Assembly (NCBI RefSeq): GCF_003334405.1
Contig: NZ_QOWM01000004.1
Direction: 5' to 3' (one strand)
From: Escherichia coli
Lineage (GTDB): Bacteria; Pseudomonadota; Gammaproteobacteria; Enterobacterales; Enterobacteriaceae
DNA length: 64,000 nucleotides
In this document: piece by piece, positions 42,863 to 43,273 of the stretch
Position numbering within the stretch: position 1 is the first letter of the stretch
Layout of the letters: the number at the start of each line of letters is the position of its first letter
Program-made: the position numbers and the translations under genes
The notes under the pieces: model-generated
What the model was told of the DNA's origin: nothing
Seen by the model: only the letters and a program-made list of their open reading frames with translations
The model's database searches: none

Positions 42863-43273
42863 ATGAAGTGGCAACAACGTGTTCGTGTCGCAACGGGTCT
42901 AAGTTGCTGGCAGATTATGTTGCATTTACTGGTAGTGGCGCTGCTGGTGGTGGGCTGGATGAGTAAGACTCTGGTTCACGTCGGCGTGGGATTATGCGCA
43001 CTGTATTGTGTCACGGTAGTGATGATGCTGGTGTTTCAGCGCCACCCCGAGCAACGCTGGCGTGAGGTGGCAGACGTGCTGGAAGAGCTGACCACGACCT
43101 GGTATTTTGGCGCAGCGCTGATTGTGCTGTGGCTGTTGTCCCGCGTTCTGGAAAACAACTTTTTGCTGGCAATTGCAGGGCTGGCAATCCTTGCCGGCCC
43201 GGCGGTAGTGTCTTTGCTGGCGAAAGATAAGAAGTTACATCACCTTACGTCTAAACATCGCGTACGCCGCTGA
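42863..43273 (+). CDS. ybhQ: Small inner-membrane protein of unknown function
   Basis: 136-aa ORF with about four predicted TM helices; GGAG RBS; 3' end overlaps ybhR convergently by 39 bp. Confidence 0.85.

Follow-up and report, generated by a model that had tools for sequence, protein, structure and literature searches.

Conservation and probable mutual constraint of the 39-bp convergent coding overlap between ybhQ and ybhR in Escherichia coli and its relatives

Convergent overlapping gene pairs, in which two real coding sequences share their 3′ ends after the stop codon of one has shifted into the other, have been surveyed in E. coli, where 75 such pairs were found (Huvet and Stumpf 2014); among overlaps of well-characterised genes, ∼7% are convergent (Palleja et al. 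2008). The ybhQ/ybhR pair, whose coding sequences share bases at their 3′ ends on opposite strands, is of this kind and shows nothing categorically different. However, whilst convergent overlaps often extend over few bases or are found in close species only, that between ybhQ and ybhR is exactly 39 bp long in more than 20 genera. The overlap itself is already known: it is part of the standard E. coli annotation, its 3′ ends were mapped in 2021 and the overlap of the transcripts was catalogued in 2025. Our additions are modest, namely an imprint of dual coding on synonymous sites and a hairpin embedded in ybhR.

The locus can also be compared with systems defined by their transcripts. Like excludons, ybhQ and ybhR are neighbouring genes on opposite strands with overlapping transcripts, as published Term-seq data and an ExcludonFinder entry indicate. 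A second likeness is to the Rho-terminated transcripts which end just 3′ of a protective stem-loop lacking a U tract, with rut sites immediately downstream (Dar and Sorek 2018). The ybhQ message shares with this class a GC-rich hairpin without a U tract and a 3′ end close downstream of it, followed by C-rich, G-poor sequence and accompanied by bicyclomycin-sensitive read-through. Unlike members of that class, its putative protective hairpin and presumed rut are located within the convergent coding sequence, and as a result the stem is constrained by the amino acids of YbhR as well. Bidirectional intrinsic terminators, too, have a single hairpin between or near two converging 3′ ends, but the ybhQ/ybhR hairpin is flanked by neither an A nor a U tract, whichever strand is considered, and the wobble changes that it has accepted suit the plus-strand RNA only. 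Nor could it terminate ybhR, since on the minus strand it lies upstream of the ybhR stop codon. Taking these comparisons together with the results below, we regard the overlap as probably a genuine tail-to-tail arrangement of ancient origin, tolerated and mutually constrained, in which 3′ ends are formed by Rho and a hairpin, and not as a regulatory device.

Geometry of the overlap and reality of the two genes

The window analysed here is a stretch of 64,000 nucleotides from the E. coli contig NZ_QOWM01000004.1, and positions refer to it unless otherwise stated. According to both the open reading frames and the RefSeq annotation, ybhQ occupies 42863..43273 on the plus strand and encodes a 136 aa inner-membrane protein (Pfam PF11076), and ybhR, the final gene of the minus-strand ybhFSR operon, occupies 43235..44341 and encodes the 368 aa ABC-2 type permease of the YbhFSR exporter. 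The segment that codes on both strands, 43235..43273, carries YbhQ residues 125–136 with the stop codon and YbhR residues 357–368 with the stop codon. The initial annotation had described a 39-bp convergent overlap at exactly these positions, and it is matched to the base by the ORFs and by RefSeq. Inspection of the sequence places the two frames in exact antisense register, codon against codon, over all 39 bp: the ybhR stop TAA lies opposite the TTA of YbhQ Leu125, and the ybhQ stop TGA opposite the TCA of YbhR Ser357, each pair being reverse complements. In the neighbouring operons there are shorter, co-directional overlaps, of 4 bp between clsB and ybhP (41969..41972) and of 8 bp between ybhF and ybhS (45478..45485); between ybhS and ybhR there is a gap of 10 bp.

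The arrangement is not peculiar to this genome. Between 824500 and 826200, MG1655 is identical to the window base for base (window position + 781767 = MG1655 position), and its annotated genes, ybhQ at 824630..825040 and ybhR at 825002..826108, end where the ORFs do. Among the E. coli genomes sampled, the gene ends in RefSeq are also the same. Of 5426 complete E. coli genomes, 5424 carry the locus, and in 5365 of them the 101 bp around the overlap are at least 99% identical. The length of the overlap is in itself no signal, and we rejected it as such. The antisense strand of ybhR contains 16 stops in 369 codons in the frame used by ybhQ, which gives a chance of ∼0.59 that 12 consecutive codons would be open.

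A more basic concern is that the overlap might be an artefact of annotation, one ORF truly ending earlier or ybhQ being no real gene at all, so that there would be no coding overlap. Errors of 3′ extension do explain some long convergent overlaps in databases (Palleja et al. 2008), and YbhQ has no assigned function and was matched by none of the NCBIfam models. We nevertheless regard this as extremely improbable, and as effectively refuted already. The position of a stop codon leaves an annotator no choice, and the sequence is invariant across thousands of E. coli genomes. YbhQ belongs to a conserved Pfam family of 136-residue proteins: the PF11076 model covers residues 1–132 of the 136, there are 817 homologues with a usual length of 136 aa, and mean column identity is 91% in an alignment of 8 sequences from 6 genera. 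For YbhR, residues 2–365 align to positions 539–906 of the 909 in the RbbA permease profile; because the alignment reaches the end of that profile, the YbhR C-terminus is typical of the family. The YbhR tail, ending in [VI][MA], is moreover conserved in all loci, including those described below in which the genes do not overlap. Thus both genes are real and conserved, with C-termini like those of their orthologues, as judged from Pfam, the profile end and the 65 of 80 species-level loci in which the overlap is kept. Both ORFs traverse the shared segment, and both C-termini are retained across genera when reading-frame conservation is checked, as the initial annotation had suggested; conservation that halts short of the overlap, which it had named as the observation that would speak against its claim, was not seen, and both family profiles support the C-termini.

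Conservation and mutual constraint of the shared segment

A scan with one genome per species yielded 80 loci with ybhQ, and ybhQ adjoins ybhR in every one of them. The identical 39-bp overlap is found in 65 of these 80 Enterobacteriaceae loci, which represent more than 20 genera (Escherichia, Salmonella, Citrobacter, Enterobacter, Leclercia, Kluyvera, Yokenella, Atlantibacter, Siccibacter, Mangrovibacter, Trabulsiella, Buttiauxella, Cedecea and others) and among which YbhQ identity falls as low as 62%. Unlike its length, the conservation of the overlap is, as far as sequence comparison can tell, in excess of chance, given that nearby synonymous sites vary by 1.5–2 bits. The sole length variant among the overlapping loci is in Kosakonia cowanii (locus L053, 3373..3420), where the overlap is 48 bp and YbhQ is three codons longer (…VRRGAR), because the Ser codon of ybhR that faces the ybhQ stop has become Thr. 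Three loci in which ybhR is apparently frameshifted (L021, L036 and L046) were left out of the counts; the frameshifts may reflect true inactivation or assembly error. The same holds for E. coli UTAK-1 (L002), where both ybhR and ybhS are annotated as pseudogenes or appear frameshifted.

In 11 of the 80 loci there is no overlap. These belong to Raoultella, part of Kosakonia, Phytobacter and three others, and in each an insertion exactly at the ybhR stop codon has left the genes 2–206 bp apart. The YbhQ tail is altered in these loci (..AANPxxHR or a short ..KSFKV), and the YbhR tail is as elsewhere. That insertions have separated the genes in several genera argues against a strict need for the overlap.

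Some of the insertions have features of their own. Phytobacter at first appeared to have the 39-bp overlap, from a tblastn match that ran through a stop; on retranslation ybhQ ends 18 bp before ybhR, and this candidate was rejected. The short insertion there (L030, 3408..3435; L032, 3411..3438) creates a perfect inverted repeat of 10–11 bp (CGGCGTAAGG / CCTTACGCCG) which flanks the ybhR stop codon on both sides, and the former antisense-encoded YbhQ tail persists as an unused in-frame relic. In Raoultella the spacer (L072, 3436..3618; L074, 3439..3644) holds two copies of a unit of ∼100 bp (…ttcggactgcatcaaggcggc.acgc..cgaatc…gcatagata…), the first of which provides the alternative YbhQ tail. 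This unit has the appearance of a small element, repeated or mobile, that has inserted exactly at the ybhR stop.

The two halves of the overlap vary differently. Column entropies were calculated over 66 sequences, the reference for ybhR being the mean of its 154 four-fold columns, 1.16 bits. In the proximal half (43235..43252, coding on both strands), YbhQ residues 126–130 are variable and the ybhR third positions are free, with 1.5–1.7 bits at 43241, 43244, 43247 and 43250. Wherever the genes overlap, residue 125 of YbhQ is L or S, since its codon lies antisense to the ybhR stop and can be TTA, CTA or TCA. In the distal half (43253..43273, again on both strands), YbhQ ends in K-H-R-[VI]-R-[RH]-stop and the synonymous sites of ybhR are nearly frozen: third-position entropies are 0.33 bits at 43253, 0.49 at 43259, 0.27 at 43265 and 0 at both 43268 and 43271. 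Just outside the overlap the ybhR third positions are free again, at 1.6–2.0 bits. Across the whole gene, 11 of the 154 four-fold columns have an entropy of 0.35 bits or less, and four of these 11 fall within the last 22 codons. These include non-preferred codons, namely Ala GCG (63/66), Ser TCA (64/64) and Ala GCC (62/62).

Two further patterns bear on the distal half. The first is a coupling between the two proteins, in that a YbhR tail with ‘SAAY’ goes with a YbhQ ending in ‘..RR’ and one with ‘SVAY’ goes with ‘..RH’. The second is that the frozen sites are less conserved where the genes do not overlap (11 loci; Fisher p = 3e-6 at 43253, 0.007 at 43265 and 0.02 at 43271), although these p-values are optimistic, because the tests, like the entropies, count species as independent and the 11 loci form just ∼3–5 clades. 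The substitution patterns thus point to purifying selection on the terminal K-H-R-[VI]-R-[RH] of YbhQ and on where its stop codon lies, added to selection on the YbhR tail. The synonymous sites of ybhR would then be frozen distally because YbhQ fixes its last six residues and its stop.

The same freezing might instead reflect a signal at the nucleotide level, such as an RNA structure or an RNase or Rho-related site, with the YbhQ tail a passive read-through. It is consistent with this that YbhQ residues 125–130 vary freely and that other genera have a wholly different YbhQ tail (…AANPxxHR), and the neighbouring hairpin, described below, shows that nucleotide-level selection does act in the region. 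However, the frozen sites are the first positions of YbhQ codons 131, 133, 135 and 136 and of the stop codon, the changes that do occur are conservative in YbhQ (V/I and R/H), and folding predicts no stable structure that involves 43253–43273. The greater variation of these sites once ybhQ no longer reads through them also points to the protein. Overall, a nucleotide signal seems to us a rather poor candidate for the cause of the freezing, and selection on the YbhQ C-terminus the better one.

Transcript ends and a hairpin within ybhR

Published Term-seq data place a steady-state 3′ end of the plus-strand ybhQ mRNA at 43313 (MG1655 825080; Adams et al. 2021, PMC7815308), which is 40 nt past the ybhQ stop codon and 79 nt inside the ybhR coding sequence. 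In two of the three growth-condition sheets of that study the end is classed as ‘primary’ for ybhQ and as ‘antisense’ to ybhR; the column layout of the supplementary data was verified on the thrL row. No discrete 3′ end of ybhR is listed in the same data. A second Term-seq 3′ end, classed as ‘internal’, lies within ybhQ itself, on the plus strand at MG1655 824690 (window 42923; PMC7815308), in the first 61 nt of the ORF and directly 3′ of a predicted plus-strand hairpin of −19.7 kcal/mol (42875..42923). With a Rho score of 0.6 and an intrinsic-terminator score of 4.9, it could be a product of premature termination or processing early in ybhQ.

We found no intrinsic terminator in or next to the overlap, either by a consensus scan or by folding both strands (z = −1.3 and −0.2), and neither strand has U-rich sequence after the hairpin stem, as an intrinsic terminator, bidirectional or otherwise, would have. 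The bicyclomycin data of the same study do report termination by Rho on both strands (PMC7815308), at positions which are approximate, the regions being 800-nt windows with low read counts (20–119). On the plus strand, the region for ybhQ read-through peaks at ∼43415 (MG1655 825182): reads upstream and downstream were 73 and 20 in untreated cells and 110 and 119 with bicyclomycin (Rho score 3.95, p = 5e-7). Thus read-through of ybhQ rises when Rho is inhibited, within the limits of 800-nt resolution and few reads. The minus-strand region, which concerns the ybhFSR transcript, peaks at ∼43162 (MG1655 824929), ∼73 nt beyond the stop codon of ybhR and in antisense orientation to ybhQ, with reads of 99 and 23 untreated and 105 and 94 with bicyclomycin (Rho score 3.85, p = 2.2e-7). 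The initial annotation had stated that no terminator separates the two genes. This stands for intrinsic terminators and has to be qualified for Rho, which is reported to terminate past each stop codon, on both strands.

Immediately upstream of the mapped ybhQ 3′ end there is a hairpin, GTGGCCGTTAT-CACCA-GTAGCGGCCAC (43281..43307, plus strand), in the ybhQ 3′ UTR. It starts eight nt past the ybhQ stop codon, folds with −18.5 kcal/mol and has no U tract; AAACTATTCC follows directly 3′ of the stem, and the end at 43313 is 6 nt beyond the hairpin. The hairpin coincides with the ybhR codons for W-P-L-L-V-I-T-A-T. A C-rich, G-poor stretch at 43294..43353 on the plus strand, with 13–14 C and 2–5 G per 40 nt, is a candidate rut region.

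Comparison of the 66 sequences indicates that the pairing is maintained. In 57 of the 66 loci, no 31-nt window along the full ybhR-antisense RNA is more stable than that of the hairpin, and 92.6% of cells are paired. Compensatory changes occur in two of its pairs (G-C to A-U and C-G to U-A, 7 cells), a modest covariation support because most stem positions are invariant. The 8-bp core has 16 one-sided changes, with one more in the apical pairs, and every one of them gives a G-U wobble on the plus strand, where the minus strand would have an A-C mismatch. Synonymous changes in ybhR that break plus-strand pairing, for example Ala GCC to GCT at 43283, are never found uncompensated. Four-fold sites within the hairpin are frozen, with Ala GCC in 62 of 62 sequences and G at 43283 in 66 of 66; in non-overlap loci 43283 varies (p = 2e-4, with species treated as independent). 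The hairpin is not strictly tied to the overlap, as Raoultella retains it with a ybhQ stop that lies 56–206 nt further upstream. Taxa with separated genes have other hairpins in the new intergenic spacer.

Tolerated arrangement or regulatory device

The results can be brought together as follows. Having no stop codon before it meets ybhR, ybhQ reads 12 codons into the codon-aligned antisense frame and ends at the TGA antisense to the ybhR Ser TCA, a geometry which most ybhQ-bearing Enterobacteriaceae have retained. Both proteins would constrain the shared DNA, YbhR through its hydrophobic and basic tail and YbhQ, to judge from the substitution patterns, through its last six residues and stop. 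According to the published data, the untranslated RNA past each stop is terminated by Rho within the coding region of the partner; the ybhQ message would then probably be trimmed back to the stem-loop without a U tract, so that its stable 3′ end comes to lie 6 nt beyond the stem. With 3′ ends formed inside the partner genes in this way, the two mRNAs would be complementary over ∼150 nt (∼43162..43313).

That the transcripts overlap, as the initial annotation had proposed, is borne out by the Term-seq end 79 nt within ybhR and by ExcludonFinder (NAR 2025, PMC12288877), which includes ybhQ–ybhR among 165 convergent E. coli excludons, its list being of pairs that recur in 50% or more of 58 MG1655 RNA-seq samples. 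Antisense interference between the two genes, which the initial annotation also raised, is no more than a possibility. In its strongest form, collision of RNA polymerases or cleavage of the duplex by RNase III would keep the overlap in place and make YbhQ and YbhFSR mutually exclusive. The ExcludonFinder entry and the ∼150 nt of complementarity given by Term-seq and Rho mapping would fit such a regulatory excludon, as would the retention of the overlap across genera and the adjacency of ybhQ and ybhR in all 80 loci. Yet what the entry records is read coverage, as opposed to anticorrelated expression or cleavage by RNase III, and transcription of both genes is weak (∼70–110 reads per 800 nt), so that collisions should be rare. 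In addition, several clades have separated the genes by insertion, with hairpins between them, and the overlap itself is therefore dispensable. We consider the regulatory excludon unlikely. Most simply, the overlap can be read as an arrangement that is tolerated and mutually constrained, without being a regulatory device.

A still more elaborate possibility, and one that we hold to be doubtful, is that 43235..43313 carries a triple code (the YbhR tail, the basic motif of YbhQ and a protective hairpin) and that the ∼150-nt duplex couples the expression of YbhQ and YbhFSR as a true excludon. If this were so, all three codes would be packed into ∼80 nt that include the last transmembrane residues of YbhR, and all three would be conserved across the Enterobacteriaceae.

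The locus has practical consequences for work on either gene. Where ybhR is recoded, deleted or codon-optimised, edits in 43235..43313 also change the YbhQ tail or the end of the ybhQ mRNA, and a clean deletion of ybhQ removes the 3′ UTR of ybhFSR. More generally, the pair is a worked example of a convergent overlap that has persisted for the age of a bacterial family, in which the imprint of each protein can be read in the synonymous sites of the other, and of how a 3′-end hairpin of the Rho type can sit within the coding sequence of a neighbour.
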